Assembly (NCBI GenBank): GCA_026023565.1 | Contig: JAPETS010000009.1 | Location: forward strand, 744,001 to 808,000 | From: Cirrosporium novae-zelandiae | Taxonomy: Eukaryota | Length of the DNA: 64,000 bases | Direction of reading: 5' to 3' | In this document: piece by piece, positions 10,927 to 45,578 of the stretch | Position numbering within the stretch: the stretch's first letter is position 1 | Layout of the letters: each line of letters starts with the position of its first letter | Notes under the pieces: generated by a model | The model's database searches: none | Told to the model about the DNA's origin: nothing | The model's input: the letters and a program-made list of their open reading frames with translations, nothing else | Program-made: the position numbers and the translations under genes

Positions 10927-13595
10927 ATGGCTTCAACTTATACCTATCCTATGACGGAAACAGCAGTGCGTAATCCTCGCGGTCATGGACATCGACGATC
11001 ACATCAACACATAGTATCTCCGCTGGGATTGGGGACAGCGGGGACTCCTTCCCAATTCCTGTCTGTTGGCGGCAGGTCACCGGGGCCGGAGGGACTGACT
11101 GGATATGGATATAACGATTTGTTATCCAACAAAAGTTCAACATCAAGTCTGCAACTTCCAGAAACTTTTGGTGCGACTAAGCCTCCCGGACCAAATAGCT
11201 ATGCACCTTCCCAATCCCCGGCACTGAATGATAATCACTCTCATAAACTTGGTGACACCTCTTCACACGGCCATGATCATACCACAATGGCGCCAAACGG
11301 CTACGGATTTTCCGCAATCAATGACCATGCTGAGGGTCAATCATCGAGGTAAATATATGCCCTGTTTTTCTTTCAAACTGACTCTAACTATGTGCTTTGC
11401 TAGGTTCGAATTGCTGCCAGTCGAGGCTCTCAGCGCTCTACTTATACCTCTTCCTTTCCTTATCGCTTCTGCAGTTTCGGCAGCTTCTACCAACTCTTCT
11501 ACCCACTCTTCTACCTCCTACAGCGCATCGTCCTTGACCTTATCATGCGCCTATGCTTCTGCGACTCTCCTCTCTATCGGAACTATCAGAAAGTTGGAAA
11601 ATGCCCAGAAAGATGAACGGCAGAAAGAAAAACAGGATAGCCGGGGTGGGCAACCAATAAATATGTCTAGGATTGGGACAGGCATAAACAGGTCTCTTAG
11701 TATCATGTTGCCATTCTATGCATCTATGAAAATTGGAGTCGGTCGGGTTTCGTTTTTGATTCTCCTCGCAGCTGCTGGAGGCTTCCTCACAAACGAGAAT
11801 GATCGCAGGAAACAGGCTTTAACTTGGATTGAAGGGTGGAAGAAACTCATTACACAACGAATATGGACATCTTTTGCTTTCCTTCTTGGTATCATGTTTG
11901 ATATGATTGGTCTCACAACTGGGCCAGAGTCAAACTCCATCTTGGCCTACTTAGCACTGGCTGTATCTATATTCCTACTCCCACCGCCATATTCTTTTCG
12001 CGTTGGTCGATCTATGAGTCTTGCCAAGCCAGCTCTTGCTCGGAGAGTTTCAATCATGTCTGCGGCGCCTCGAGATGTCTCTCAGGGACTTCTCGCGGCT
12101 TTCATAGATCCTAACACCGTTTCACCACTCACCTTAAATGATGGCGAGACCGACCTTACGCTTTGTTCTGGAGGAGCCCTTGGAGGAGCTACCTTATTTC
12201 TTGTACTTGTGGGACAGGGTTTCTCTATATCAAGCGCTACTCAGCTATTTGGTTTTTTTGCGGTTGTTACGGTATCAATATTCTCATATGGCGTTTCCTG
12301 GCCTGCAGCACTCCGAACGGACCTTAAGCTAGGAACCGCCCTTGGACTTGGGCTCACTATACTTTCTTCTTCATTCTGGGGTACCTGGACAAATTTCTGG
12401 TCACAGTCATTTCTCGGAATGTTGTCATATGTGGCCTTGACGAAAGATACGAGAATATCTTTACACTCTCGCCACCATGATCACGATATTGAAAAACATA
12501 TACTTGGAAAAAGCAATCCTTCTAAGGCCTCTATCTTTCTGCTGAAAACTTTCAAAAACTGGCCATTGGTATACGACATACTTGCAGAAAAGGATTCGAG
12601 AAGGATTCTATACTTTACATGGTCAGAAACTCCATGATTTTACTGTCCCTCGCTGACTAATTCATAGTCTTAACTTCGGATTTATGCTGATCCAGATGGT
12701 ATACGGGTTTATGACCAATTCCCTTGGTTTGATGAGCGACAGCATTCATATGTTCTTCGACTGCCTTGCATTGGTAGTTGCTCTCGCAGCTTCTGTTATG
12801 GCAAGATGGCCCCCAAGCGCACGATTTCCATACGGCTTGGGCAAAGTTGATACTCTCGCTGGATTTGCTAATGGGATTTTTTTGATGTAAGTCTGATAAT
12901 AGACTTTTCCTACTTCTAGCTAACGGAAAATTAGGATTATCAGTATTGAAATCATATATGAGGCGGTGGAACGCCTAACAGAAGGCAGCCATATGCAACG
13001 TATTGGAGAGCTACTTGTTGTTAGTACTCTTGGTCTCATGGTGAATTTAGTGGGAATTTTCTCCTTCGGTCATGCTCATCATGGTCATGGCCATGACCAT
13101 GGCGGGCACTCCCATGACCACGACCACGATCACGACCACGACGATCATGATCATGATCATGATCATTCTCCAAACCTACTTAATTCAGCACCACCACTAT
13201 CTCATAGTCATGGAGGACATAGCCATGGCAGCGATAATATGGAAGGAATATTTCTGCATGTGCTTGCTGACACACTTGGGTCGGTAGCGGTGGTACTCTC
13301 TACTATACTTATCCACTACTTCGGTTGGGCAGGTTTTGATCCTCTCGCCTCATGTATGATCGCCACATTGATCTTCTTGTCTGCGATACCCCTTGTCAAA
13401 AAGAGCGCAACTACTCTTTTGTTGGCTCTTCCTGCAGATACGGAGTATTCGCTAAGAGACACTCTTTCAGGCGTCAGTGAACTTAGGGGTGTAGTTGGAT
13501 ATACAGTACCCAAATTTTGGGTAAATGATTTAGCAATATTAAATGGCCTTGATGAGCACGACCATCACCACGACCACGGTCACGCCCATGATCAT

Positions 13596-13627
<32 letters not shown>

Positions 13628-13955
13628 TGACCATGACCATGACCATGATCATGATCACGATCACAATCACAATCACAATCACGACCACAACCACGACTAC
13701 GATCACGACCACGATCACGATCACGATAATTTCCATCATCATGACACATATGACCATGACCACAGTCACTGCAACGAGCAAGAAGAGAAACTAAGAGGTG
13801 TCATGCATGTGATTGCATCACGGACTGCGGATCTAGAGGATGTGAGACAGAGAACGGTCTCTTATTTGAAGGAGAGGGGCATCGATGCTGTTGTTCAAGT
13901 GGAATGGCAAGGGGAAGGCAGGTGTTGGTGCGGAGCGGGGAAGAGGATTGGGTGA
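10927..13955 (+). CDS. MSC2: Cation diffusion facilitator zinc transporter, Msc2/Cis4 type (ER/Golgi)
   Basis: Four exons (introns at about 11350-11403, 12622-12667 and 12887-12934). CDF motifs SLGLMSDSIHMFFDCLAL, FPYGLGKVDTLAGFANGIFL and NMEGIFLHVLADTLGSVAV. Extra N-terminal TM region and His-rich loops. Confidence 0.88.
13556..13770 (+). repeat. Coding hexanucleotide-type repeat (CAYGAY)n encoding a His-Asp/His-Asn tract
   Basis: Visible cacgac/catgac/cacaat arrays. A shorter tract lies at about 13076-13166. Confidence 0.9.
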
Positions 13956-21686: not shown

Positions 21687-22734
21687 TCGATTAGCCTTAT
21701 TGATGTCAGAAAAAGTACTATGAATATACAAATAACAGGAACAGGAACCATGGATGGGCTCATGAGGATGTTTTCATTTCTTTTACAATTGTATTGATTA
21801 GCCAAAGAAAGCCTCATGATTTAAGCATATGAAAGGGTCCAACCAGCGAGCGAGCGACCGCATGTCTTTTTTGTTTTTGTTTCAAGATCAAAGAAGGAAC
21901 TCTTTAGATTTCTCTAGAATTCTGGTAGTGGTGGGTGGGTATAGGAAGATGTTTTTTAGTTTTGTTACCATGACTGTCAATGAAATTAAATTGGTGAAGA
22001 CAGACACACGGCCCTCCTGTTCTTTTTCTTTTTCTTTTTCTTCTTTTTCCTGCACACATGACCGATTTGCCCTGCAATTGTGACTCGATATTATATTGGT
22101 TGATATTCCCGAAGCGTGATACAGGATAAGGATATTGCAGGCAATATAACAATGCCCTGCGTGGATTATGCTTACCTTGTGTGTCCTTTTTTCTACTGCT
22201 ACGATATGGTATCGAGACCTCGTTTTTATGGACCAATTGATATTTACCGCCTGGATTGATTATCGGTCTCTAGAATTTAGGTAAGGGATATTTAATTCTT
22301 GATTTATTTTTATTTCTATGTAGGAATTTCCCACAAATCGTTGTTTCTGACTTGCAAACTGCATAGGATCCTGAACCTGCTCCTCTGCCCCGCAATTCTC
22401 ACGATCCTTGACTGCGACCGCTGCCAGCAACCCCGAACCTAAGAATACCTATTAAATCGCAATGACGTTCAGGAAATTTGGCCTTGGGTATGGAATATAT
22501 TCCTTGCATAAACATTACAGCGGAGACGAAACTACAGGAGATATACCCGGAGTCCGAGAGATCACGATCATATGATTAACACCGCTTTCCCCAACTCGCT
22601 CTTAGTCCAACACCAATTATGAAGCCAAATCCTTCCATGTGCCGAACAGAGAGTATATCAATCAACCAAGTCCACTTGTTCCTCGGGTTCATTAAGTCTG
22701 CCGAAGCACCCCAATTCCTACCGTTGCCTTGAAG

Positions 22735-23955
22735 ATGTCGATAACTGCCAATGTTGAAGAGGGGGGATCTCATCCTTTCGAAGTCGAACACGATGTGGCT
22801 ATGCGTGGAGGAGGTTTTTACACTTCCAACTCCGATCTACAACGGGCCAATGTGTTGAAAGCATTGCCTCTCTTTAGCTTGAGGGGAGCTCGCCAGCCCG
22901 TCTCTCCTAGCCGTCCATTTACAATAGTGGATTACGGGTCATCGTCCGGGGTCAACTCGTGAGTATTCCAGGGCCCTACTAGAATTCAAAGAAGATCACT
23001 ACTAACAATCTATCTGAAAACGTACAGGATTGACCCATTTTCACATATCTGCAAGACATATTTTCCTCCACCAGACCCGTCAACCCCGAACACAAAGAAA
23101 CAAGAAGTAACCTTGGTCTTTAGTGATCGGCCCAGTAATGACTTTAACAATGTCTCCGAAACCATCCAGGAAGCTCGACCCTTGTTGACGAAGCAACACC
23201 AACACCTTTCTATATTTCCTACAATGATCCCTTGTAGCTTCTACGATCGTGTCATGCCTACATCTTCTGTCGACATTGCCTTTTCCTGTTCCTGTCTCCA
23301 TTACCTCTCTCGCCTTCCACATATATCCTCCCCCGAAGTCCGTCAGGAAACATACCGCCAACAAGCCCACGGAGATCTAAAAAACTTCTTTCTACTTCGT
23401 GCACAGGAACTCGTCCCAGGTGCACCTCTTGTCCTATCATTCGTCTGCTCTGCTTCCTCTAAACGGCCGAACTATGGTCCTGCCACTGCAGCGTTGCAGC
23501 AAGGGCTCCAAGAAATGCTGCACGATGGCCGCATCTCCCCAAAAGCGCTAGAGCTTTTTGAGATCCCCTTCTACAGCCGTACTATTCAGGACGTCCGTAG
23601 CGTGCTAGAAGAACCCGACATTGCCGGAAAGTGGAAGGTCGATGAACTTTTTGAACACGAATCAACTCATCCCGCATATCAGCGCCTGGTAGTAGATGGC
23701 TATGGAGGTGAAGATGACATCGCATACGCTCGCGTCGTGATCGAATGGTTCCTGGCAGTCCTAACCAACTATTTCCTCACAGCATTGCGGATGGCTGCCA
23801 AAGCATCAGGCACGGAGATTTCGACCGCGGAGGAGAATAGCCTGCTGGTCGAGTGGAGGGAACGGTGCATGAAGATCTATCTGGAACACCATCGTAACGA
23901 GAGACTTTTTGCAACAGAAATTTATGTGCGGTTAGTGAGGACGGAAGAAAGATAG
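22735..23955 (+). CDS. SABATH-family (Methyltransf_7) SAM-dependent carboxyl methyltransferase
   Basis: Motifs MRGGGFYTSNSDLQ, IVDYGSSSGVNS, FSDRPSNDFN, PCSFYDRVMP..AFSCSCLHYLS, DLKNFFLLRAQELVPG and IPFYSRT match plant SAMT/JMT/IAMT motifs. One intron at about 22960-23027. Confidence 0.9.
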
Positions 23956-24692
23956 ATAGCTTCTTGATAGATAATAGATAAAGACAGTCATAAATAAAAA
24001 ACGATATTTATCCATAATCTCAACCCTTTAAATCTCAGTTACATCTGCTATACGCATATGGAAAAACTGTGTTGGGATTTTGTCGTTGTTATTGTCAAGA
24101 GTTATTTATATATGGTAGGAATGATTTTTTTTATCGATACTTACCTAGGTTGGAAATAAAATATCTAAGTAGAGGGAGAGTATGAAGGAAGGGGGGGCGT
24201 CGAGTATCTCCAATAGATAGATACCTACAGTAGGTAGATAATAGACTAATGGAAATCAACATGTTGTTTACTGGACTACCTAAGTACATTATAGCTCCTT
24301 TAGATTATGCGGGGGGAGATGTGAAAACAAGCAATATTGGTTGGAGGGGTCCCCTATCAACCTTATCAGAAGGTTGGGCTTGGCTGACGATAGCAAAACC
24401 GGCCCTGCAATAGCTTAAGCTAGATCTAAAACGGTATTTCCAACCCACCAGATGCAGTAGTTATCGATTCGATTATCTATGCCCCCCCCCCAATCCAAGT
24501 TACCGGCCGGCCTTCTAGAAAGCGGATTGTCAGATTAGATGGGTCGGAATTTGATTAAAGTTGAAGTGGTTGCCCATGATGAGAGGTTGGTTTGGTGCGA
24601 CACACATCCTTAACAAACAACCCGCTTTGCTCGCTTTCCTTTGGTGGTAGGAGGATATCCGAAAATCACCGCAAATCTCCCAATCTTAAAAT

Positions 24693-26406
24693 ATGGCTCA
24701 AGATAATAATCATGAAGTTGAGAAGCAACCTTCTTCGGATGTTAAGGCATCATCATCATCATCGTCACCGGCGAACAATGTCAGCGAAGGCAAGGTCTTT
24801 ACGCAGGATGAATACCATCTCGCCTCGTTGGGGTACAAGCAAGAGTTTTTCAGGCATCTTGGTCTGTTCGAGAATTGGGCCGCTACGTTCTCGTCCATGA
24901 ATTTTATTTCTGGTATTCCCGTGCTCTTTGGATGGGTGCTTTATTCTGGAGGTCCCAAGTCTGCATTCGCCAATTGGACCATGGTCGGTGGACTATCGTT
25001 TATTGTTTCGTTGTCGATGGCGGAGATTGCTGCTGCGTTGCCGACCGCTGGTGGTATATATTTTTGGGCATATAGACTTGGGGGCCCTACCTGGGGTCCG
25101 TTCCTGAGCTGGATGACTGCTTGGTGGAATTGGGCTGGCTGGATCTGCGTCGTGCCGGGTGTGCAACAGGGCGCGACCAGTTTCCTTCTCTCGGCTTTGG
25201 AGATTAAATATCCAGAGTCCGAAGTGCTATACCAGGGATGGTTTTCATGGTTGCTTACCTCGATTGGAATGCTTTTTGCTATGGCACCCAATATCATCTC
25301 CCAGCGAGTCCTGCAATGGTATTTCCGCTTCGCCATCTTCATCTTCTTTACCCTCTTTGCCCTTTATTGGACATGGTTCCCAGCAATGGCTTCTGGCCAT
25401 TTCCAAACATCAGCTGGGGTGTTCGACCGGTTTTATAATGGAATAAACTTTGGGCCCGAGAAGCAAGCCTCTGATTCCTATACATGGGTGGTTGGAGTTC
25501 TTTTTGGAGCTTGGGTTTTTTATGGTTATGATGCTTCCGCCCATTTGGCAGAGGAAACCCATGAAGCAAGTACCGTTGTTGCCAAAGGAATGTGGATGTC
25601 GACGCTTTCATCTTGGCTCCTTTCAGTCCCAACTTTGATTATAGTTCTCTTCTGTATGCAAGATTTCGACAAAATCATCTCGGCTAGTTACTCTAATAAT
25701 TGGGCCGAATACCTGGTTCAGCTCATCGGGAAAAACGGAGCAGTGGCCATTCTGTCGATACTATGGGTTGACTCGACCTGTGCAACAGCCTCTTGTTTCA
25801 TGTCCGCACAGCGGGTGACGTTTGCTATATCAAGAGACGGAGTCTTGCCTTTTTCCAAATATTTTCGCCGTCTCAACAAGAACCGAATTCCTGTCCATGC
25901 TGGATTTTTAGTCTGCTTCCTCAGTATCGCCGTCACTTGCGCTGTTATTGGCTCCTCGGTAGCATTCACAGCTATTACTGCTACAGCCACAATTGCTACA
26001 AATTTCTCGTATCTGATCCCAATCGTGGCGCGTCATACAGTTGGGCGCAAGCGTTTTACCCCAGCTACCTGGAACCTTGGAAAGTACAGCGTATACTTTG
26101 CTATCGTGGCTGGTTTGTACATAATGTTTTTGTTTGTTGTATTGCTTCTTCCACAAGAATATCCTGTTACTGCCGTAAGTATTCTGGGCTCAAACATTTT
26201 CGTACGCAACTCTAATGCGTATCTAGAAAACCCTCAACTATGCGCCTATCTGCATCGGAATTGTGACGATCATAAGCCTTGTGGGATGGCTTCTACCATT
26301 CGGCCTTGGGGGCAGGCACTGGTTCAATGGGCCTAAGAAAACCATTGAGGAGGAAGAATTGCAGAAATATAGGATGGTTGATGCTACTGGTACAGTTTCT
26401 GTTTGA
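24693..26406 (+). CDS. APC-superfamily amino acid/GABA/choline permease (UGA4/HNM1-like)
   Basis: LGYKQEF.R, SMAEIAAALPTAGGIYFW, YGYDASAHLAEET and RVTFAISRDGVLPFS. Intron 26175-26226; last exon TLNYAP..HWFNGPK ends at TGA 26406. Confidence 0.92.
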
Positions 26407-27041
26407 TAGAGACGGTATCTAAACTTTTGTAAAGTGTTTTTGGATCCGATTCAAAGGATTCTGATGGCACGAGTAAAGATATAGATTTCTCGGCGGGTTT
26501 TCAGGGGCCATTTCGCTTGTTGTTGCAGGGCTTGATGGTTGGGTTTTACTTGCAAGAATCAAACGGTTCAGTTCGAACATGGCCTTTATAGAGATGTATG
26601 GAAACATGCTGCATATATTACATTCACATTATTGATGAGTAATGATATTGAATCTAAAAGACTAGGTCCAAAGTTTGATCCTAAAGCTCCCAGCCCCGCT
26701 CCTTAGTAATTATTAGCCTCAGGCACAAACCCATAAGCGAACTCTCCTGGTCTCGTCATTCCTCCACCCTACTCATCAATATGTCAATACTCCATCTATT
26801 CCTGTTAGTTGCGCAATGCAGATCGGCGGCACGTAAAGGATCACACATTTTAGGACAAAGAACTATTAACTAGTTAGCATGAACTTACGAGATGATTATG
26901 AATTTGGGCCATCATCTAATTGCGGAGATAATATGTCCGACTCCTCGGACTCTATATCCGCGGTCTATCTCCGAATACTTTACATCTCAACACCTCCGTC
27001 CGAAGTGATCGATCGTTTTCATTCCATTAATTTTCATAGAA

Positions 27042-29574
27042 ATGTTCAATCGGAATCCCTCTTGGCGATCACGTTCGGCTGATGAAACGAATGCACGCGA
27101 TCGGAAAAGGAGGAGGAAAACCCTTTCCTGCTATCTTTGCAGAAAGAGGAAGTTAAAGTGTGACCGTGAGTATCCTTCATGCGGTAGATGCCAGAAGGCT
27201 GGCCATGGAGACTCTTGTACCTATGAACCAGGCTCCCTGGAAGCTAGGAATGATGTGGACGAGGATGAACCGTCTACTTTGATCCACAGAGTCGATAATG
27301 TTCAAATACGAACACCAGCTTCAAGTGTTCATGCACCAATTGACGACCCGGCCTTGATGGCCAGTAAAAAAGCTTCCGATGATGCGGCCTCATCCAAATT
27401 GTTGATGCAAGCAAAAAGAATCTCGGAGCTGGAAAGTAGACTTGCGAGCCTAGAAGCGTCAGTCAATCAACGACCATTGCCATGCTCAAGGCTTGAGCGA
27501 GGCGCATTTCCTGCTAAGCTGAGTATAAAGTCCACACTTCTAGTGCCGGATTTAAGCGGAGCTGGTCCAAAAGATGCCAAGGAAATTGAGATGATGAGGT
27601 TCCGAGGGAAGGGATACAAAACGAATTTTTATGGCGTCAGCAACACAACAAGCCTCGTTGGTCAGGTATGTCTGCTGCTTCTGCTACATAATAGCTCTAT
27701 TAACATCAACAGTTTCCTGAACTCTGGACATTTATGAATGATGCTTTTAAAAACAACCCAGCAGGTGTCCGGGTTGGGAATGACCTGGATGCTCTAAAAA
27801 GCCCATTAAAGAAAAAAGCCAAGGAAATGCCAATTAATATCTTAGCTCCTAGCGATGCGGAGCTTTTTAGTTTGCTTCCTACACAGGAAGTAATGGATAA
27901 TCTTTTGCAACTCTATTTTAGTACCTATGAGACTACATATCGTATTCTACATGGGCCTACATTCTGGGACGAATACCGTAGCTTTTGGGAAGATCCGGAA
28001 AAGCGCAGATCCGGCTTCATGGTACTCCTCCTATCCATAATCGCAACCGTCTATTGTGGGTCTTCAAAAGAGCCATTCAGCTATATTGCTGATAGTTCCT
28101 CGGCACGAGAGATGTCAATACTGTGGATCCGAGCATCCGAATCATGGCTTCAATATCAAAGTGAAAAACACATGACTCTAACCCAAGTTCAGGTTCGTTG
28201 TCTGTTGCTACTAGCTAAGCAGGTAAACCAAGTAAAAAGGAAGCAACATTGGGCATTTGCTGGAGCTCTTATGAGATTTGGCATGCAAATAGGATTGCAT
28301 CGTGACCCTAGTTTACTTGGTAGAAAGATAGCTATGTTTGACCAGGAGTTGAGGCGGCGACTGTGGGTCACAATGACTGAGTTGGAGCTGCAAGCTTCAA
28401 TTGACAGGGGAATGCCATCTTCGACAGCAGGCCTACCATTTGACTCTGCGCCCCCAAGAAACATCAACGATGATGACCTTGAGGTCTTATCTCAGCAGCC
28501 CCCAAATCCTAGGCCATGGCAGGAATACACCGAAACGTCCTTTTTACACATATCCCAAAAAAGCTTGTCGCTGAGGATCTCCCTAAATTCGGTGATAAAC
28601 AATCCTACATCTCATTTACAACATGATGATGTGTTGCAATACACAGAAAAAATCATGGAACAATTAGAAAAGGTTCCTCCTTGGGCTAAATCTGAAGGCG
28701 ATCTGGAAGACGTTTCGAGGTCTTCAGTCTTTCCACGGACTCTATTGAGCCTTCAACTTCAACAGTTTTTGATCATGCTTCATGGTCCTTTTCTCCGACG
28801 AACCGGATCCAACCCCTGGTATGAATACTCAAGGATGGTTTGTCTAAAAGCTGCCAATTCTATCATTGATCAGCATTCCAAACTTGTAGAGTCTGGAAAC
28901 TATGCACTCTGCATGCTTAGAAATGACGTAACCCGAGCAGCTCTATGCATTTGCCAAACGATGTTTATCTCAAATGCTATTCAAAGTTAATAACCCATGC
29001 CCCTTTCATTTGGATTTAGAAATAAATTTTTAACAAATGCTATAGGTGATCTCTTCCTCCAGAACATGGTGCATTCATTTTCTCAGACTGTAGAGAAGGT
29101 TCTTGCGATGCTTGAAGACTACGTAATACGCCTTGGTCGTGGTTTTAGTTCCTATTGGTTTGTATCTGCTGCATATAGCCTTGCACAATCGAAGTCTTCT
29201 GTGGATTCAAATATCCTAAGAGACCAAGCAATGAACAGATGTACAAGGCTATATTACAGGATTCTCGCTTCACAGGAAGACTTGTCCCGTACAGATGCAC
29301 TTGAACCTAACACAGAAATGGATGCTACTGGACTTCCGCTTTTAGCTTCGGGCCCAGTTGAGGTAAGATTTTTCTGTCAATCTCATTCAACGTCCCTGGG
29401 TCTACTTTGGCTATGTCTCAAAACCCCAACCTAGTATTTACAAGAATCGGAAGTCGCTAACTAGTGAAGATCACAATCCAGGATATTGCGCCAGAGCTTG
29501 AAGAGTTTGAATACTCTCACTTTTCGGGGTGGAGCTTCGAAAATGATTGGTTATTTGACTTTGGACATGAGTAG
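27042..29574 (+). CDS. Zn(II)2Cys6 transcription factor with fungal-specific TF middle domain
   Basis: CYLCRKRKLKCDREYPSCGRCQKAGHGDSC, and QIGLHRDP..ELRRRLWVTMTELELQAS. Introns at about 27667-27712, 28986-29046 and 29362-29481; acidic C-terminal tail ends at TAG 29574. Confidence 0.93.
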
Positions 29575-29681
29575 TAGATCACGCTCTTGATAATGTAGAG
29601 ATAATCCCTATAAAACCACACACTTGAACAAAAAAGAATCCAACTTAAGCAAACTCAACTATCAACCACAACAACATCACC

Positions 29682-30413
29682 CTACTTGCTCACAACCATA
29701 GCCATCAGAAAGCCATCATAATCCTTCTCCCCCACAGTTTGGATAACCACAGCGTCAACCCGCGTATCCTTTCCTACCTCTTCCACCACCTTCCTAATTC
29801 CCTGTACACGTGGATTGTTTCGAAACTCCTCGGCCACCAATTTCCCCTGGCAAACAACATTATCCACACAAATGCACGCTCCCACGTTACTCATCTTGGC
29901 CGCCAAATCAAAATACGCCCAATTGTTTGAGGCATCAGCATCAATATACGTAAACCCAAAAGGCTCCCGCGTTCCCTCTTGAATCTCAGCCTCCAGCTTC
30001 AGGAGCACCTCCAAAGCAACCCCCACAATAACCTCGACCCGATCGCCGACTCCCGCGAAAGCGATATTCTTCCTCGCTACCTCGGCACGCTTCGGATCCA
30101 TCTCGATAGTAGTAATATGGAGACCCGGGTTCTCCGTTGCTAGCCAAATGGACCCGTACCCCCCCAGCGTACCAACCTCCAGCGCATGCTTTGCACCAAC
30201 TAGTCGGCACTGTAGAGAAATGAACTTCCCCTGCATGGGATTCGTAGCTATGTCCGGGAGACCTTGATCGCGCGCGTTCACCAGAGCATGTCTGAGCGCT
30301 TCGGTATTCGGACGAGTTGAAGGGTGGAGATTGGAAAAGGTGTAGTCGTCCACAGCGACCCAACGCGGGTCTTGTTCATACTTAATGTTGGTAAAGACGT
30401 TTTTGGCGGCCAT
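29682..30413 (-). CDS. O-methyltransferase family 3 (caffeoyl-CoA/catechol OMT-like)
   Basis: Intronless from ATG 30413: LEVGTLGGYGSIWL, TYIDAD, ICVDNVV and IQTVGEKDYDGF. Confidence 0.92.
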   Translation of the reverse strand: MAAKNVFTNIKYEQDPRWVAVDDYTFSNLHPSTRPNTEALRHALVNARDQGLPDIATNPMQGKFISLQCRLVGAKHALEVGTLGGYGSIWLATENPGLHITTIEMDPKRAEVARKNIAFAGVGDRVEVIVGVALEVLLKLEAEIQEGTREPFGFTYIDADASNNWAYFDLAAKMSNVGACICVDNVVCQGKLVAEEFRNNPRVQGIRKVVEEVGKDTRVDAVVIQTVGEKDYDGFLMAMVVSK

Positions 30414-30690
30414 TGTTGACTTGACGGGGCGGGAGGGAGATAGATGATAACGATAGATTTTTTTTTCAAGACTGTGTTGAAGAAAGAGTTGGGGATATAT
30501 ATAGGATATGGGATATGGTTTATAGAAAAGCGAATCAACCAGATTTCCAAGATATTCAGTTTTTGATGAGAATTCGAAGCACACTTAATCATTCATTCAC
30601 TCAAAGGAAAACCCCCTCCCCTTCTTATACCCAAAAATTCCCCTAATTCCCTTTCCCCTTCCCTTCCCTTCCTTGAGTTCGGATTCGGAT

Positions 30691-30708
30691 TCGGAGATAC
30701 ATCTCCGA
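30691..30708. promoter_or_regulatory. Palindromic CGG-N10-CCG site (tcggagat-ac-atctccga), candidate Zn2Cys6 binding site
   Basis: Perfect 8-bp inverted arms, about 280 bp upstream of the OMT start, preceded by two further ttcgga units. Confidence 0.55.
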
Positions 30709-31752
30709 TAAATAACCTACCTACCTACCTAGGTACCTATATACAAGTCCGACCCTCGAGCCCTCGCCCTTCGGACTTGGAGATCCTTTTTGAAAATAAA
30801 ATCCGAGTTTTTTATATCCCTGCTCCTACATGGAGGGGGAATGCTGTTGCCTTGGGGGTTTTTTTCTACTTGTATGTATACCTCCGTCGATCGGTCATTG
30901 GTCATCGGAGATGGATGGATAGATGGACTATGCATGGATTATGGCATGTAGATGTAGATGTGGGCATAGGTAGGTCAATTATTTCCTATAGCTATAGCTA
31001 TAGTAGATTAGATTAGATTAGATTGGCTGAGAGCTTGTTTGGGGGGGAGGGGGGAGAGGGATATAAAACTTGCTTTTGGAAGTTTTTTTTTAATTCAAGT
31101 GGACTTTTAGTGTATTTAGTGTACTTGGTGTATTACTTTGAGATTTGATGTTGGTGTTAGTGTGTGTAATTGTTGGTGTTGGATATATCTATAATTAACT
31201 TATCCCCTAATCTAATCTAATCTAATCTAGAGTAAATACACCCCACCACCAACCACCTAATTATTGTATTTCTTATCATATCATGATAAAAAGGGATAAG
31301 ATAAGATCATTATTTTCATTTTATGATTTCCGTCCCCACCTTAGTAAGATATAATAATTACAGTACAATACAGTACAGTACAAACAAAATCCAAGATATT
31401 TTTATCCAGTAGAATGTGAATCATAACCTACTTACCTACCTACTTATCTACTTACCTTGCCTACGTTCCACAGAACCTTCAGTCTCTTAAGACTAAGAGA
31501 TATATAATCAATGTTTGTCCCTTTCGGGAGTATTTGGTTTAATTAATAACGCAGTAACTTTTCTGCCCTCTTTTTTGATCGTTTTCTGTCTTGACGCTAG
31601 GGTACCTGGGTAGGTAGGTAGGTATTACATAGTACATTAAACACGGACATAAGCATGACATCACCACCACCACACCTTGCCTCTTCCCTCCTCCCAATCC
31701 AATCCATCCCATCCCCATTTCCCCTCAGCATCTAGAAACCAATAAATAGCTT

Positions 31753-31886
31753 ATCTCCTGAACCGGGCACAAAAGGACCGCCTTAGCAGGGGAGGTCAAA
31801 CTAGGGGGTCAATCTGACCTATCATTGATCCCTACATGAATATCCCTAATTACTGAGGCGGACCTTTTGTGCCCGGTTCAGGAGAT
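31753..31886. mobile_element. 134-bp foldback / MITE-like element with 34-bp terminal inverted repeats
   Basis: The left arm atctcctgaaccgggcacaaaaggaccgccttag matches the reverse complement of the right arm at 32/34 positions (first 24 perfect). The interior is also imperfectly self-complementary. No clear target-site duplication. Confidence 0.6.
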
Positions 31887-32509
31887 CCTACACACTATAA
31901 CAAACATTACACCACACAGGAAGCATACAAGTTACACAACATGAACAGCAATCAATTGATTAATTAACGGTCTGCCTTGGCCCATTTGTCTCCCCTTCCC
32001 CTCCCTCTCTCCTCCCACATGCGTGTCAGCAACCACCAAGTCATGCCTCTTGGGAAATTTGAACTGAATTGATTGATTGGCTGGCCGAATGATTGATTAA
32101 TTGGTCTGATTGACCTTGTCCGTCCGCGCATTGCTTGGCGATTCGGGGCATACCACAGGAGGCATGGGTATCTTTTGCTAGTGCTGATGTAATTACTGGA
32201 ATCAAATCAAATAGTCACTCGAGTAATTGGCTAGGATGTACCGGATCTGCAGGGGGATCGGACCGGACCTGGGGATTTTTTATTTGTTTATGAACTACTT
32301 GGGGTAGGGGGAACGAAAAAAATATGCTTATGTTATACTTTTATATATATATATGCTTGTTCCGTCCTTTTTGATTATTTTTTATTTTTTGTTAATTTTA
32401 ATGCTGGGGTTTTGAACCTGTTTTTTATTTATCTGTTTGTTTGTTTTTGGTAAGAGGGTATATACGTACAGTACATACATATATATACCCCGCAAAAAAT
32501 AAAAAACAA

Positions 32510-33487
32510 ATGACACCGCGGCCATTCCTTTCAGTTTTCCACTTCCTCGCCATCTCCTCCTCCATCCTCTCACTCCTCATACCCTCATCCACAACAGCCT
32601 CCAACAGCAGTCCAGGCTGCGACACCACCTCCACCCCCAGCTTCCCCATCGGAACCTCAAAAAACTTCACCCTAAAAACCTCAGATGGCCGAACACGAGA
32701 CTACCTTCTCTACCTCCCTGAAAACTACACCCCGACGACCCCCTCCCCCCTAATATTCTCCTACCACGGCAACGGCAAAAACATGACAAACCAGGAATCC
32801 CTCTCCCAGCTCTCAAACTCCACCTTCAACAAAGATTATCTGGTTGTGTATCCCCAGGGTGTGAAAAATCACTGGGAAGGGCCTACCTATGCCGTGAAGG
32901 GGGTGTCGGATGTGAATTTTACGGCGGAGTTGTTGGAGGAGTTGGAGGCGGGGTATTGTGTGGATGTTGATAGGGTGTATGCGAATGGGAAGAGCAATGG
33001 GGGTGGGTTTGTGGATACCTTGGCTTGTTCTGGGGAGAGGGCCGGGGAAGCATTCGCAGCGTTTGCGCCTGTGAGTGGGGCGTTTTATACGGATTTGAAT
33101 GCGAGTAGTCCGTGTGATTTGGGGTCCAGGGTTAGGACCCCCATGTTGGAGTTTCATGGGACGGGGGATAAGGTGATTAATTATACGGGCGGTGAGGGGG
33201 GTGGGGGACCCATACCGCCGATTCCGGAGTGGTTGGCGAGATGGGGGGCGAGGAATGGGTGTGAGGATTCTTCTTGCTATAGTGAGACGGAGGAGTATGG
33301 GGGTGTGGTGCAGTATATTACTTATTCTGGAAATGGGGTCGATGAGGTTGTGGAGCATTATCGCATTGATGGGATGGGCCATGATTGGCCGAGTACGATG
33401 TGGAATAGTGATAATGAGGGGGATGTGACGGTCCTTGATGCGACGCCGTTGATCTTGGAGTTTTTCGAGAGATGGGTAAAGGAGTGA
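32510..33487 (+). CDS. Secreted carbohydrate esterase family 1 (feruloyl esterase C / PHB-depolymerase-like)
   Basis: Signal peptide, RDYLLYLPENY..PLIFSYHG, VVYPQG, nucleophile motif GKSNGGG, EFHGTGDKVI and GMGHDWPS. Confidence 0.9.
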   Translation: MTPRPFLSVFHFLAISSSILSLLIPSSTTASNSSPGCDTTSTPSFPIGTSKNFTLKTSDGRTRDYLLYLPENYTPTTPSPLIFSYHGNGKNMTNQESLSQLSNSTFNKDYLVVYPQGVKNHWEGPTYAVKGVSDVNFTAELLEELEAGYCVDVDRVYANGKSNGGGFVDTLACSGERAGEAFAAFAPVSGAFYTDLNASSPCDLGSRVRTPMLEFHGTGDKVINYTGGEGGGGPIPPIPEWLARWGARNGCEDSSCYSETEEYGGVVQYITYSGNGVDEVVEHYRIDGMGHDWPSTMWNSDNEGDVTVLDATPLILEFFERWVKE

Positions 33488-33783: not shown

Positions 33784-35586
33784 TCAAACTATACTGTACC
33801 GTCTTCGTATCTTTCCAACAGGTTGCTGTATAGAAGGTGTTGTTGTATTAGCAGATGCCATGGATTGTCCAGCAGCCAAAGATGGCTGCGGCGTCAATTC
33901 AACCTCTTTGATGATAAAATTATAACTGGTGTCAAGAGACCTTGACCTTCTGCCAATCAGGATACACCTATAACTCTTAAGTGAGCGTTATACAGTACTT
34001 AAATGAAGGTGATCATACCCGTTTGATCCAATTAAGTCTCATTGTGAAGAGTATTTGGCATAAGCCGACAATTCCAGTAATTAAGGGGATAAGCTGACTA
34101 GTGGACTGCACCTCATAGATGCCGCGTATTGAATTCCAGCATGAGGTTAATTCCACTGCCAATATGAACCAAATAATAATTCCCAGAATTACGATGATAA
34201 GTGTAGTTCTAAGCCAATATCTCCTAGGTATCGTCAATATGTAGGGAACAGACTTGTTGGGAGCCTCACCATTTTTCGTAATTGATAGGTTGTGGCTTTT
34301 CCGTGTCCGAGCCTTTATCTGGATGGCTAGAAATATTTAATATTCATTTGAGAAGTTGCTAGCAATTTGGAATTTCATAATAGAACCGGATCTTTCGTAT
34401 AGTCTCGTCCACTAGTTCGATAGCGACTCCCTAAGCACGATAGTAGGAATAACGGCCCTCCAGAATATATTTTAACAAGGCCGAAAGAACTAACTTATTA
34501 GCTGCTAGTATGACCTGGAGAGATAACATAACCCAACATAACCCCCAAAATGCTCCATACAAGAAGTAGAGAGTCGAAACTATTTTGTAAAAAATGCCCC
34601 CACCCCCTTTGATGTCTACTTCTGAGAGCAAAAAGATTACAGGGCTGCATGAATGTGAAATAAACGGAGAATCTCCAGAAAACCAGAACCAGATATTATA
34701 GGAAGAAATCCCACAAACAATCATGGCACGCCAATATATGCCAAGCCACGACAATTCAAGGTGTCTGGCAGAAGAACCTATGCCAGTGTGAAAATTTTCC
34801 TCTGACCCTGTTCGCGTAGAATTAGATACTTCCTTAGAAACCTGTATTTATCACTGCTCTGTATATTTGTCGAAGAATAGTGTTCGTTGGAAATCCAAGG
34901 CAGCAAAGTCCAGCCAACATTATCGAAGAACAAGAATATCAAGTTCAAGATTGATAGCCCAGGAATACTCTGGCTCATGAGGCTCAATTTAACATATTAT
35001 CCAAAAATTTATTGCCAATTATCCAAAGGCCTGTAGTTGCTTTGTCCGGGAATTGACCTGAAGACTCGACAAGCAATGCTCTAAATTCATCCCTAGCGTT
35101 TTCTAGAGCTATGTTCTCTTCCTTACGGTAATGGCGAAGATATTCACTCCACCTTTTCAGTGCAAGGCCATCGAGGTTACTGAGAATTGTAATCCGCAAT
35201 CTAGTAATACTCAGAATTGATAATAGGTACCCAAAACATAATTGTAGCATCACAAACGCTTCCACCTGACGTAAGGTGTGAGCGGTAGTAGCTTTAACAA
35301 TAGCAATAAATATTGCGAAAAGAAATGTTGAGTTTGTATCAAGTGCACTTGGCATCATATCAGGGACGAAGGCGTTGGCGAGTAAAGAAGAGATCCATTG
35401 CAAATATATACCAAGCCGAATTCCAAAGCCATAGAGATCAGAGTTGCCTTGGAATCCGGTGCAAACATCTCGCTCGACATCATGGAAAGGTTGCCTTGAG
35501 GGGAACACATGTAGGGTAGAGATGATAAGGCTAAAGATAAGTATTGGTATGAAGACGGATCGTAAAACACTAGTTTGCATTGACAT
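33784..35586 (-). pseudogene. Multi-TM fungal protein of unknown function, fragmented (probable pseudogene, or weakly spliced gene)
   Basis: ORFs 34984-35586 (GNSDLYGFGIRLGIYLQWISSLLAN), 34778-34987, 34431-34754 and 34013-34237 (AVELTSCWNSIRGIYEVQSTSQLIPL) are collinear pieces in different frames. Some junctions lack strong donors, and the last exon appears frameshifted after YPDWQKVKVS. Confidence 0.5.
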
Positions 35587-36043
35587 AGATTATAAGAAGA
35601 ACAATATAGACTGAGATAGTGAAGAATATTGAAGATTGGAAGAAAATGACCATGTATTTAGTACAATACGTAGTACTAGGCTCTGTATCGAAATCTTAAT
35701 TACCGAGGGTGGGTAGGTGAGTAATAATAGGCTTTGTTTATGAGATGTAGATTGTGTGGATGAGACTAGGTAATTATAAATAATCAACCTATTCCCGACT
35801 TAGACTAGTATGAACCCTTTGGACCAAACGGCTACCGACAGACCAATAGTTTCCGCGAACAACGTTTCTCATGTTTCTACCGCTTGTTTGCTGGATATCA
35901 AAGAGAGCCTATTGTTACTATTCCACGCACCCCACGTTCGGTACTCGACTTGAAAAGACTCGTTCCTGTATATCATTGAAACTATTAGTGTTCAAGCTAT
36001 GCAGCAAGGATGAAATCAAAGGAAAAATTTTACAAAAGTCATC

Positions 36044-37202: not shown

Positions 37203-40184
37203 ATGGCAGACACGTGGGAATCATACAAAGAGACCATAAAGAACTTATACTTGACACAAAACAAACCACTTAAAGATGTTATAACGTATATGAGCGAGGC
37301 ATACGGCTTTCGTGCGAAGTGAGTTCTCGCGATTAAGTGCCTCGCAAAGAGACTAACGATGTCTCAGTAAAGCACAATACGGACCTTGGTTGAAAGCATG
37401 GAATTTTCGTAAGAACCTCACAAGTCCGGAGTGGGATTTCATCGGGCACCGTATCCAGAAACGAAAGAGAGACAAGAAAGATAGCAATGTTTACATCAAC
37501 GGGGCTTTAATTCCATTCAAGAAGGTCAAGAAAGAAGTATCACGAAATATGCTCCCAAGCTACTATTCCGGTAGGGTCCATATATATACTTCAAGACTGC
37601 CAATACTAAAGGTAGTCAGCACCAAGCCCGCAAACACCTGAAGGAATTTCAGTGTGTACTCCTCAGGCATTCCTTCTACGTTCTAGCTTATCGGAGACTC
37701 TCCCCATATTCAAATTCCTAGAAACAGTTGGAACACATGGTATTTCAATGCTCCTAGAGTCAATGCTAAATAGAAAGCCATAGGCTAAACTAGAATACAG
37801 ATGGACAAGCTCTGATCAGCATTCATGAGAAATGGAATCTAGCTCTACAAGATGGCAAATCAAGTCTAATTGACGGGTGTTCGGATTTTTCATGGCTTTT
37901 CTCACCAGGAGATATTAAACCTAGTTATTTTGGAACGCTGTCAACCGTGCTGGATTCGAGCTTCACCAGGAACGTTGCTATCACCGGTAGCGATGGCACC
38001 CTTGCAGAGATACCAACACCAGGAAATTGCAACCGACTCGAAGATACTGCACGCAACACCATTACAACCTCGAAGGTATCAGACTTGTGGCTCTTTTTGG
38101 GGGTATTCGCTTATCGAATGACGAATAACTTTATAAGACAAGAAAAGGAGATTCAAGAATTCCTCGAATGGATAATCGAAAATAGAAAGAGTGCGTCTCT
38201 TAAAACCGTGTTGCAATACAAAACACCGACCACCAAAACATTGGCACAGGTTCTTCTCTATAGCGCAGTGAAACTCAAATATATGGATATTCTACTAGCT
38301 TTGCTGGATTTTGGTGTAGATGTCAACGCCATAAGCCCATTGTCGTGCCAACCACCACTCATTATAGCGGCAAGGGATGGCAACATCGAACCGGTTCAGT
38401 CTCTACTACGAGCTGGAGCTCATATTAACGTCTGCTATACTGAAAAAACTGCGCTTACAACAGCAGCGGAAACTGGCAATATAGCACTAGTCAAGTTTCT
38501 CATACAAGCTGGTGCGGATATCAATATCTCCGAACACGGACACACTCCACTTCAAGCGGCAGTACAGAAGGAAAATGTTACCTTGGTTCGGATACTATTG
38601 GATCTTGGCGCAGATGTCAACATTTATCGTACTGGAAATAAATCGATAATACTTGAAGAGGCCTTTAAAACCGGAAATAACGATTTAGTTAAGTTGCTTC
38701 TTGATACTGGCGCAAATATCGACGATGCAACTAAGCTCCATGCAATGATTAAATGCGATAATTTTGAATACCTCACAGAATTCTTAGAAGCTGGTATGGA
38801 TATTAATTCCTCTACCCTGGAAATATGTGGAGTAACCCCGTTACAAACAGCAATAAGATATGGAAGAAAGGAAACGGTTGAGTTTCTTTTAATAATGGGG
38901 GCAAATATTAATACTCCAGCTACAAAATATTATGGATTGACTGCATTTCAAGCAGCGGTTTCCCGAGAACCAATTGATATTAACCTAGTCAAAATGCTTT
39001 TGGAGGCTGGTGCAGATGTTAATGCTCCAGCTGCAAAATATAATGGATTAACTGCACTTCAAGTAGCGGTTTACCGAGTACCAATTGATATTAACTTAAT
39101 CAAGATATTTTTGGAGGCTGGTGCAGATGTTAATGCTCCTGCTGCAAAATATTATGGATTGACTGCACTTCAAGCAGTGGTTTCCCGAAAACCAGTTGAT
39201 ATTGACCTAGTCAAGATGCTCTTGGAGGCTGGTGCAGATGTTAATGCTCCTGCTGCATACTGTCAAGGGAAAACAGCGCTTCAAGCGGCAGCAGCTTTAG
39301 GGGGTGAGATTGAGTTAACTCAGATGCTCCTAAACGCTGGAGCAGATGTTAACGGTCCAGCTGCAAAATGTTGTGGGTATACTGCATTACAACAAGCTGT
39401 CCGGAATAGGGACTCCCTGTTAATTCGAATCTTCCTGGATGCTGGCGCGGATGTCAATAGTACTGCCACAGAATCTAGAGGTTGCAGCTTCAACGGTATA
39501 TGCATTATGCACGGCAAAGGAGAAGAAGAAGCATGGGGAACTGCACTGCAGATGGCAGCACGTTGCGGCAACATCGAGTCAGTCAATATGCTTCTGAATG
39601 CAGGGGCAAATATCAATGCATTAGCTTCAGAGTCCTGGGGACAAACCGCACTCCAAGCCGCAGCAGAGGCTGGCGAAAATAGAGTCCAGCTCGTTGAGTT
39701 ATTATTATCAAGGGGCGCAAATATAAATGCACCTATTTGTAAAATAGGGGGAAGGACGGCACTTCAACATGCAGCAACTAAAAATGATGTAGACCTAGTC
39801 CGAACCCTACTTAATTCCGGGGCAGACGTCAATGCTGCTGCTGCCGAAGGCTGTGGATTTACCGCACTCCAAGGAGCTGCGATCAGTGGAAATCTCAGAA
39901 TTGCATGCATGCTCCTCGAGGCCGGAGCTGATATTGATGCTGACCCATCAAAATGGTGTGGGAGGACAGCTCTCGGAGGCGCTGCTGAACATGGCCGTCT
40001 AGACATGGTACAGATGCTTATGAATGTTATCAAAGGTCGTGATGTTCCAGAAACATGGAGTTATCAAATAGCAGCTAAGTTAGCGGAAGACAACGGTCAT
40101 GTTGTCATAGCGGGATTGATTCGAGCCTTTGAGGAAGAACGTAGGGAGGCGGGATTCTCGTCGACGAGCTCAAGGAAAATCTAG
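37203..40184 (+). CDS. Clr5-domain protein with long C-terminal ankyrin-repeat array
   Basis: Exon 1 is MADTWESYKETIKNLYLTQNKPLKDVITYMSEAYGFRA. Introns at about 37319-37367, 37571-37619 and 37740-37800 join in frame to KAQY..LKAWNFRKN and then the 37947-40184 ORF, which carries more than 15 GADVN..TALQ.A repeats. Confidence 0.88.
38898..39257 (+). repeat. Three-plus tandem 111-bp high-identity ankyrin repeat units
   Basis: Units start at 38898, 39009 and 39120, with a partial unit at 39231; near-identical at DNA level. Confidence 0.92.
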
Positions 40185-42878: not shown

Positions 42879-45578
42879 TTACCAGCTGTTGAGCCCCTTC
42901 TTGATGGCTTCGCTTACGCGGGCTGGACCAGCTGAAGATGTGGTGGTGTTTGTGGATCCCGGAACACAGCGTCCGTTACCCCAAGCGACATTCCCAGCAC
43001 GGGTCCAGAGGGCAGAGATGTCAAAGAGATCATCAACCGTGTGGAAGATCCTGCAGTCTGCGGCTTCATAAACGAACTGGAGTGGGGTGTTGGTGTCGTC
43101 TCCTACGCGGTAGTTGTTCCTCGCGTTGACGCTGGGACCCGTGGTTGTTAGGTTTGTGTAAGCCAGGGGGGCATCTTTGAGGGATGGGAGGGTCATGCCC
43201 TTGGGCGCGTCTTTTATTGCTAGGGCATCGAATGTGTATCCCTGGAGGGTGGATATCGTCAATACCTCGGCGCCTTTGGTCCCACCGACAGCCTGCATGG
43301 GTGCGTTTTTGGGTCGGCCTCCAACGACGATGCTGTTTAGTTGTGCTTGGGACTTTAGGAACTCGGAAAAGATTGTGCAGGTGGAGGCACACACGCCGTC
43401 GTAGAGGACGTAGATGTTCTCCTTTTTGAATGGCTGAGGGTTAAGATGGGTCAGGTTTATGTAGCCCGAGATATCTAAACCTTGGGTGGAGACGATATTA
43501 CTGAGGTTGTAGCGGAGGAGGGAGGTGAAGTTATCACCATCAATCTCGATGGGTCCGTACATATCGGCCCAAGAAGTATAGGGAGCATTGTCAGCATTTT
43601 GATAACTAGATACAATTGTTAGCAAAAACAACCTCCAAATTAATACTATAAATGAGATCCAAGGGTAATGTTCACCTTTTATAAGAAAAGTCTGTTGAGG
43701 TAGTCAAATTATATTTTTCCGTGTTCAACGCACTACCGATGAAATTCAGGGATGGAGCATCGCGGAAACGTGATGCACCGTATGGCTCGATAGTAGGGAA
43801 GAGTTGTTTGAAGAGGCTTTGGCAAGTCAGTAATAATTCCCCCATGTATCAAGTATGCATTGATAACTTACTCATAACCAGCATCAATTAATCCACCACC
43901 ATTATTAGAAAGATCGATCAGAAGTTTAGTTTTCCCAGCAGCTCTTGCACGGGAGAAGAACTTCCGTGTCACTTCTTGCCATTCTGTAAAAGATTCGGTC
44001 GTCTCCCCTGGCTCGAAACTTGTTACAGCGAGGACGGCCACGTCCGACATACCCGTTGAGTTTAGAAAATATCCAGATATAGCACCACTTGAGTGGATAA
44101 CAACAGGATTAGGATAGCCAGTTGGAGCTGCTACCGCTGTAGATGAAGCACTAGCCGGGTAAGAGGAATAATACGACAACGAAGAGCTAACAGGTAAGCC
44201 CGACGACATAGAGCTGGCAAGTAAGCTCGATGATGTTGGAGCTGTAGTTGCTGATAGCGCCACCGCAGAGTATAAAGCCTTACCACTATCGATACCGACA
44301 AAGCTCGCAGCCATTGCCGCCTTGATTTTCACAAGCCTTGGAGTCGTCTTATTCGCAAAAGATATGGTGTAGCTTTGAGTGTCCGGTAGCGGAGCCAAAC
44401 CATTCGCTAAGAAATTTCCCCCAGTTGTTCGTCTCAAGTCAAAAAAAATATCGTTGTAATTTGCATCCGGATCTTGGTTTGAGCCCATAAGTGCCACTTT
44501 CTCTAGGTAAGATGCTGCATCTTCCCCATTGATTTTTGTAATTGCAGATGGCGTCCACGTCAGATTGGGATTTGTTTTAGCTGCAATAATATCGGCTAAA
44601 CTCTAGTCAGTCTCTCGAAAATTCATTTGTATATACTTTTCTATGCTTATATGAACTGGAGTACTTTTTCAAATCCATCACTTCGGTATTTTTACCAGGA
44701 GGGCTTCGGAAAAATGAAAAAAAAAAATGAAAAATACAAAGGATTGATTCCGCAATAGCCGGGTTCATATAAAGGCCAAAAAACAAGGAAGCTAGAGAAT
44801 CTACTCACTTAAAGCATAAATTTCGGGCAATTCGATTCCATCTCGGGAAATTGAGGTGAGTATAAGTTGCCTATCATATTCGAAAACGTTGATAAGCGCA
44901 GGTATATAGAAAAAATGTCCGTCGTGAGCATTATTTATAAGGTTGAAAAGGTCAAGATCGAAGTCATATTGGTTGGTGTATCTGTTCGTTTATAGCACGT
45001 CAGTCTGAGGCTGGGTAGCGCAGTAAAAATTGGAAAACAACGACTTCCACCGAAAAGTGAGTCAGAATCTTCAATAACTTGCAATGATTATAGCGGTTAA
45101 AGAAGGTGATCTCAGCTCACTCATCGCCAAACATGTTAAGCAAAGCATGAAGCACTTACCCATTAGCGGCTGCTGTCTTTTTTATTCCCTGAAGGCCTCC
45201 CATGATATCAACTGGATCCATCAAATATCCTTCTGGGGGATCTTTGAGGTATGCCAATGTTGACTGGTATTCCACAAATGGTATCAACCATTCAATAAGG
45301 GCTACGGCGCGGTTCTTTTCGAACGGGGTAGACCTTAAACAAGCGTTTGCAAGGTCAAGATCGGCAGAATAAAAAGATGTTGCTCCTGAGCTAGCGGATG
45401 CATAGTAGGCAGAGGAAGAACTGCTAATAACAGCGCAAGCATTTGCTACTTTAGGAGATTTTGTCGTAGTTGGTACCACGGTGCTTGACGAAATTGAGCC
45501 ATCTGAAGTCTTGGCAGGAAGGGCATAAGAAGCAGTCACAGCAGCCAATGTAGCCGCAACAATGCTTTTGGTGTGCAT
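42879..45578 (-). CDS. Secreted peptidase S41-family protein
   Basis: Signal peptide, EYQSTLAYLKDPP, NNAHDGH, KLLIDLSNNGGG, LYDGVCASTCTIF, VVGGRP..MQAVGGTKG and PLQFVYEAADCRIF. About four introns. Confidence 0.88.

Follow-up and report, generated by a model that had tools for sequence, protein, structure and literature searches.

A 64,000-nucleotide stretch of the Cirrosporium novae-zelandiae genome (contig JAPETS010000009.1, positions 744,001 to 808,000; hereafter the window) carries at 22735-33487 five adjacent genes, all with intact reading frames, which encode a SABATH-like methyltransferase, a permease, a Zn2Cys6 transcription factor (hereafter the factor), an O-methyltransferase (OMT) and a feruloyl-esterase-like enzyme (Table 1). 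The functional core of this locus is proposed, with moderate confidence, to be an inducible two-gene unit, formed by the factor and the OMT, that would methylate catechols. A sequence-only reading of the window had suggested a backbone-less methylation unit under the control of the factor; this holds for the factor and the OMT, whose adjacency is conserved and whose promoters share a CGG element, is weakly favoured for the SABATH-like gene by one degenerate element, and is not supported for the permease and the esterase.

The gene families named by that reading were borne out by gene models, Pfam and structural relatives. Its statement that polyketide synthases (PKSs), non-ribosomal peptide synthetases and terpene synthases are lacking agrees with a Pfam scan of 34 pieces, chosen by the analyst from the 92 window open reading frames (ORFs) of at least 100 aa, in which no such domain was found. 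The factor model, with three introns, has the same length as the database protein P0125 (768 aa), and the spliced SABATH-like model, with a single GT-AG intron, equals P0121 in length and is 100% identical to it in exon 2. The OMT gene and the factor gene are convergent. All five genes fall into known families, and small units that combine a factor with enzymes are not new either; two of the active sites are unusual.

Table 1. Positions of genes and sequence elements in the window
Feature	Position	Strand	Remarks
Degenerate CGG-triplet cluster upstream of SABATH-like gene	22521..22558		GGAGATA-N-CCG at 22537-22549; 9-mer at 22550-22558
SABATH-like (PF03492) carboxyl methyltransferase, 383 aa	22735..23955	+	Exons 22735-22958 and 23028-23955; Pfam scan, alignment
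APC-family amino-acid/amine permease, 553 aa	24693..26406	+	Exons 24693-26174 and 26227-26406; probable bystander
Four CGG half-sites, including two CGGAGATA-N-CCG	26923..26973		70-120 bp upstream of factor; putative autoregulatory sites
Zn2Cys6 / Fungal_trans transcription factor, 768 aa	27042..29574	+	Introns 27666-27712, 28986-29045 and 29363-29481
Cation-dependent family-3 OMT (PF01596), 243 aa	29682..30413	-	Intronless; Pfam scan, alignment
Near-palindromic CGG-N10-CCG (30692-30707) and further CGG half-sites	30692..30777		~280-360 bp upstream of OMT
Element resembling a miniature inverted-repeat transposable element (MITE), 134 bp	31753..31886		34-bp terminal inverted repeats; dispersed in genome; outside unit
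CE1-type feruloyl-esterase-like enzyme, secreted, 325 aa	32510..33487	+	Alignment to structural relative; probable bystander

Recurrence of the factor-OMT pair and its promoter element

In Chaenotheca gracillima, the best factor homologue (P0126, 52% identical, M4579_002884) and an OMT homologue (P0033, 58% identical, M4579_002885) bear adjacent locus tags on contigs of equal size, and in Penicillium pancosmium PF04082 and PF01596 occur in one gene model (P0341), which is most simply two tandem genes merged into one. Furthermore, 80 loci around factor homologues, many of them short, were collected by a metagenome scan and searched with exact motifs, and 12 (L023-L031, L077, L080 and L090) were read ORF by ORF, eight of these with Pfam. 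OMT motifs were found in four of the 80 loci (L028, L030, L080 and L077); in the first three, the OMT comes immediately downstream of the factor. The factor is at least 40% identical to that of the window in 12 loci, seven of which extend at least 2 kb downstream; three of these seven carry the OMT. In L077:12042-20444 the factor relative, only 28% identical, is followed by a flavin mononucleotide (FMN) dehydrogenase with cytochrome b5, a family-3 OMT (D-A-N-K), UbiD and UbiX, with the OMT ~5 kb from the factor relative and beside UbiD and UbiX; this is plausibly an aromatic-acid decarboxylation and methylation cluster.

The exact-motif test detected the motifs of the SABATH-like protein, the permease and the CE1 esterase in none of the 80 loci. 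As controls, these patterns recovered the window's own genes, and the SABATH motif pair was found in 15 of 25 bacterial control loci. The absence is a moderate negative, since exact matches are needed and many loci are short. The co-occurrence across fungi that the sequence-only reading had called for was seen for the factor with the OMT and not for the other three genes. The pair is old and patchy.

Three side observations concern these homologues. The Chalcone_2-factor-OMT neighbourhood is found in four related assemblies (L027, L028, L030 and L080), in which the OMT is intact, frameshifted, stopped or absent. In L029:205-1191 and L031:5126-6307, a gene that we take to be cellobiohydrolase-like accompanies two more distant homologues of the factor, and P0168, 36% identical to the factor, carries the source name 'transcription factor lepe'.

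CGG triplets are established Zn2Cys6 binding sites, and clusters of them were located upstream of both genes of the pair (Table 1). The pattern CGGAGATA-N2-6-CCG, which was drawn from the window itself, has 45 copies in the 31.4-Mb genome, three of which lie upstream of the factor (two) and the OMT (one, the near-palindrome). In L024, whose factor is 47% identical, TATCTCCGAAT and ATATGTCCG are found upstream, an 11-mer and a 9-mer identical to those of the window's factor promoter, and in L029 TATCTCCG is found upstream of the factor homologue. The latter sequence occurs 700-1300 bp before the match in nine of the 68 factor loci that reach that far (two being the same sequence), where a density of 57 sites per 923 kb predicts ~2.5, a comparison that was counted by hand with the position confirmed in L024 and L029. 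The OMT promoters of L028, L030 and L080 are also rich in CGG/CCG. Among the CGGASW clusters of the window, the three densest are, on the analyst's reading, the SABATH-like, factor and OMT promoters, with CGGASW not enriched in the window as a whole (87 versus 82). One-mismatch TATCTCCG sites (57 in the window versus 44 expected) are too common to inform, and a fixed-spacing element, CGGASW-N7-WSTCCG, was rejected as it did not generalise. No element was found upstream of the permease or the esterase. These positions suggest that the factor may bind CGG elements at its own promoter and at that of the OMT.

Several observations weigh against a conserved two-gene unit. A downstream OMT is missing from four of the seven informative close loci (L025, L026, L027 and L090), L027 having the same neighbourhood as L028, L030 and L080, and these three represent one lineage with a common upstream Chalcone_2 gene. 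Among the matches listed (for the OMT the best 120 of 1317), three further named species have both a factor and an OMT homologue, and in two of them, Lepidopterella and Paraphoma, the two genes are on contigs of different size. The OMT is frameshifted in L028 and has an in-frame stop in L080, so the alanine at position 161 of the window OMT (see below) could be early decay. The local enrichment of CGGAGATA-N2-6-CCG is a biased test given the origin of the pattern, and the element was not found upstream of the factor homologue in L030 or L025.

The OMT subfamily is widespread in fungi (1317 matches), and two other members are present in the genome itself (contig C75; L003 and L004; 58-62% identical, with D-A-D-K intact). 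One of them (62% identical; L003, L017) has an Acyl_transf_3 gene and a highly reducing PKS in its vicinity, and the third copy of the genome (L004) lies 34 kb from it among unassigned genes. The factor search gave no match on C75 near these paralogues, and the element was not found upstream of either.

The OMT active site and the proposed function of the pair

The sequence-only reading had labelled the OMT as CCoAOMT-type, a label that did not hold, as the bacterial cation-dependent OMTs score about three times higher than plant CCoAOMT (234 bits for 3DUL, 79 for plant CCoAOMT 1SUI and 58 for PaMTH1). The S-adenosylmethionine (SAM)-motif and metal residues match the family (E79, G81, D158, D160, D184 and N185), the metal ligands D158, D184 and N185 being kept and invariant in the alignment. 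The protein departs from its family at just three well-conserved residue columns. The D-A-D-K motif reads D-A-D-A, with Ala161 where 118 of 119 homologues have lysine. One DNA run containing the stretch has no differing letters, which argues against an assembly slip at codon 161, the run possibly being the source of the assembly and not independent of it.

In the available part of PMC6543040, the K142A variant of Mycobacterium tuberculosis Rv0187 is described as keeping substantial activity, with meta-methylation raised and the selectivity for protocatechuate reversed. Rv0187 and the window OMT have the same motif spacing; thus the change of Lys161 to Ala predicts a retuned, not a dead, enzyme. 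The change marks a variant within the cation-dependent OMT family and not a departure from it, and by analogy the natural Lys161-to-Ala OMT would most likely be active, work more slowly and favour the meta hydroxyl, with vanillate- or ferulate-type products. The window OMT shares with Bacillus cereus OMT 3DUL and Rv0187 the PF01596 fold, the SAM motif, the Asp/Asp/Asn triad and the spacing, and differs from them in being fungal, in its natural alanine at the conserved lysine and in its linkage to a Zn2Cys6 factor. The Pfam family and the methylation of vicinal hydroxyls are shared with plant CCoAOMT and Podospora PaMTH1, yet both are distant by score and are not orthologues of the window OMT.

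The D-A-D-K motif is changed in four of the six OMTs beside close factor homologues, namely in those of the window (Lys→Ala), P0341 (Lys→Trp), L028 (Asp→Gly, Lys→Trp) and L080 (Asp→Val), of which the latter two are pseudogenes; the linked OMTs P0033 and L030 keep it. Such frequent change is compatible with relaxed selection or with recurrent shifts in substrate.

In the proposed mechanism, a phenolic signal would activate the factor, which would raise its own and the OMT transcripts via the CGG elements. The OMT would then cap one hydroxyl, probably meta, of small bark or wood catechols or polyphenols of the protocatechuate, gallate or caffeate type, and the capping may curb metal-driven redox cycling and so lower redox toxicity, as for PaMTH1 (PMC2806012). 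The accessible text of that source has PaMTH1 methylating vicinal hydroxyls and protecting against metal-induced oxidative stress, which makes it a fungal anti-oxidative precedent. The sequence-only reading had also considered manipulation of host signals or hormones; nothing points there, the fungus being described as a wood or bark saprobe in the available portion of PMC6712537. No description of a factor-OMT pair for phenolic detoxification was found in the literature searched, most subscription papers lying outside the search.

A small backbone-less aromatic-acid regulon of a factor and one or two enzymes is known in cdcA-padA-sdrA of Aspergillus niger. The window unit is alike in this composition, and the L077 relative is near a family-3 OMT, UbiD, UbiX and the FMN dehydrogenase; it differs in having no decarboxylase.

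The SABATH-like gene, the permease, the esterase and the flanks

The SABATH-like protein matches PF03492 at 123.8 bits (cut-off 29.8; E 1e-35), and its gene is the only PF03492 match in the 31.4-Mb genome. Foldseek aligned its model to SABATH structures at a TM of 0.57-0.72, with a mycobacterial fatty-acid methyltransferase as the best match in both sequence and fold (5F2K/N/O; TM 0.70-0.72 by query) and salicylate methyltransferase lower. The SAM motifs (D-x-G-x-x-x-G and D-x-P-x-N-D-F) are kept, with D66, G68, G72, D108, P110, N112, D113 and F114 invariant in 22 sequences. According to the part of PMC10193983 that is available, the family holds the substrate carboxylate with a glutamine and a tryptophan. 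Gln36 is kept, and Tyr167 stands at the tryptophan position, which is Trp in 19 and Phe in two of the 21 aligned homologues; the loop is of low confidence in the model. Compared with 5F2K and the plant enzymes IAMT, SAMT and LAMT, the protein shares PF03492, the fold, the conserved glutamine and the SAM motifs; the differences are an identity of 24-34% to any fungal, plant or bacterial relative that was found, the tyrosine and a fungal intron. Since no substrate can be assigned at 20-25% identity, methylation of salicylate or a hormone is just one option, and the substrate is probably a small carboxylic acid.

A word-based search returned three relatives, 26-27% identical, from two Orbiliales fungi and one liverwort. 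Since a search of this kind has little sensitivity at such distances, SABATH proteins need not be rare in fungi. Relatives from bacteria show 24-34% identity. Horizontal transfer of the gene was considered and no donor could be named, given the overlap of the bacterial (24-34%) with the fungal and plant (26-27%) identities; a single-protein scan of prokaryote genomes returned nothing. No characterised fungal SABATH enzyme was found in the literature searched, which excluded most subscription papers, and the accessible portions of PMC11393059 and PMC11644291 contain nothing on one.

When the first base of the pattern is dropped, the looser GGAGATA-N2-6-CCG finds a site 186 bp upstream of the SABATH-like gene. 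It occurs five times in the window versus 0.34 expected by shuffling (218 in the 31.4-Mb genome), a count to be read with the pattern having been loosened only after that site had been seen. Four of the five lie upstream of the SABATH-like gene (one), the factor (two) and the OMT (one), and one 9-mer is common only to the SABATH-like and factor promoters. The SABATH-like gene is read as a lineage-specific neighbour that may have come under the same factor, which is judged less likely than not.

The permease matches PF13520 (E 2e-46) and scores best with TIGR00907, an amino-acid permease model, at 262 bits and below the cut-off of 598; its family has 25 matches in the genome, and no solved structural relative was found at E 0.001. 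TIGR00907 members carry γ-aminobutyric acid (GABA), choline or polyamines, and known aromatic-acid carriers are MFS types. By family, the permease is predicted to be an amine/GABA-type APC carrier and not the aromatic-acid importer that the sequence-only reading had made of it.

The best solved relative of the esterase, with a full-length match at E 5e-74, is a feruloyl esterase (PDB 9J07), which we take to be of the FaeC type. Both share the G-K-S-N-G motif and the triad, placed by alignment at Ser162/Asp220/His291, and a signal peptide was judged by eye from the hydrophobic N-terminus. Despite this full-length likeness, the window gene has no sign of linkage to the factor or of co-regulation. 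Such a feruloyl-esterase-like gene, single-copy in this genome, is expected of a wood saprobe. A gap of 2.1 kb with microsatellites and the MITE-like repeat, whose terminal repeats are 94% complementary and which has related copies on at least four other contigs (C13, C32, C42 and C102), separates it from the OMT. Secreted CE1 esterases of the feruloyl type hydrolyse methyl hydroxycinnamates; the enzyme would thus undo the SABATH reaction rather than only feed it. The caveat of the sequence-only reading, that the permease and the esterase could be bystanders, is now the likelier case: both are probable bystanders, their motifs having gone undetected by exact match in the 80 loci and their promoters being without the element.

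The left flank consists of housekeeping genes (mitochondrial carrier, ubiquitin-conjugating enzyme, cation efflux and a TFIIIC subunit), and the right flank of ankyrin, S41 peptidase and unassigned frames. The last exon of the cation-efflux (zinc transporter-like) gene at 12924-13955 contains a very long tract of His-Asp repeats. Immediately beyond the esterase on its right, membrane-protein-like frames without a Pfam match occupy 34013-35589 (-); they are followed by the longest window ORF, an ankyrin protein of 796 aa with many repeats (37794-40184), and by a secreted S41/CPAF-like peptidase of several exons (42879-45584, -). Elsewhere in the assembly, contigs C35 and C47 gave identical matches at near-identical positions, which suggests a duplicated contig.

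Alternative readings and significance

The factor-OMT unit could extend to the SABATH-like gene, an extension that would not exclude the two-gene unit. A phenolic acid would then receive two methyl groups, one at a ring hydroxyl and one at the carboxyl, and so become an ester that is volatile or can cross membranes, for example methyl vanillate or methyl ferulate. The distribution of four of the five GGAGATA-N2-6-CCG sites over the three promoters, the 9-mer, the three densest CGGASW clusters, and an intact gene with Gln36 and the SAM motifs kept all speak for this regulon of three genes; the loosening of the pattern to admit the SABATH-like site, the detection of the motif pair at none of the 80 factor loci versus 15 of 25 bacterial controls, the better match to a fatty-acid than to a salicylate methyltransferase, the replacement of the carboxylate-binding Trp by Tyr, and the element-free permease between the SABATH-like gene and the factor speak against it, and it is judged unlikely. 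An equally doubtful version has the conserved factor-OMT unit recruiting, in this lineage, a rare fungal SABATH enzyme, with both active sites retuned, that of the OMT by Lys to Ala towards meta selectivity and that of the SABATH enzyme by Trp to Tyr, so that bark catecholic acids would be turned into doubly methylated volatile esters without a backbone synthase; the secreted esterase could, as part of this scheme, release the acid again outside the cell. Highly improbable is the full chain of release, uptake and double methylation put forward by the sequence-only reading, in which the esterase would liberate hydroxycinnamates for import by the permease and for the action of both methyltransferases, with all five genes under the control of the factor. 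Physical adjacency and families, the close relation of the esterase to a solved feruloyl esterase, a host on wood or bark, and the location of the single-copy esterase and SABATH-like genes less than 11 kb apart are in its favour. Against it stand the failure to detect permease or CE1 motifs at any of the 80 loci (exact matches being needed, with patterns that recover the window's own genes), the lack of an upstream element at both genes, the APC/amine type of the permease, the repeat-bearing 2.1 kb before the esterase, and an esterase that would cleave the SABATH ester.

For the OMT itself, a very slim chance is given to a pseudo-enzyme that senses catechol or SAM and co-regulates the factor, much as AflS/AflJ stands beside AflR but derived from family 3. 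AflR-AflS is a Zn2Cys6 gene beside a gene of the methyltransferase fold in the available parts of PMC3202775 and PMC8395729, and the window pair is alike in this adjacency; change of D-A-D-K in four of six linked OMTs, where one in 119 general homologues lacks the lysine, is in line with it. However, the window OMT keeps all SAM and metal ligands, P0033 and L030 keep DADK, two changed copies are plain pseudogenes, and the K-to-A change leaves Rv0187 active. AflS derives moreover from Methyltransf_2 and is divergent from aflR, whereas the genes here are of PF01596, convergent or tandem, with cofactor ligands intact and no backbone cluster. There may also be no living unit at all, only a rearranging lineage-specific stretch beside a housekeeping block that gathered accessory genes, with the OMT as a redundant, decaying copy of the old pair. 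The two other OMTs of the subfamily with intact DADK, the broken or lost OMTs of L027, L028 and L080, and the housekeeping genes on the left against ankyrin, S41 peptidase and unassigned ORFs on the right are consistent with such a relic; intact frames in five of five genes, an OMT off-family at three conserved columns alone, and the CGG elements kept upstream of the factor and the OMT make the chance of it slim.

With the factor-OMT unit as the preferred reading, the guess of five genes is narrowed to a testable core: an apparently undescribed unit with a predicted binding element, encountered in one metagenome lineage and in named fungi of at least three genera. The natural Lys-to-Ala catechol OMT offers a test of whether the lysine sets regioselectivity rather than catalysis, and a very divergent fungal SABATH-family protein is flagged as worth assaying. 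If the SABATH-like gene does belong to the regulon, the locus would represent a way for fungi to make aromatic methyl esters that escapes cluster finders built on backbone enzymes.

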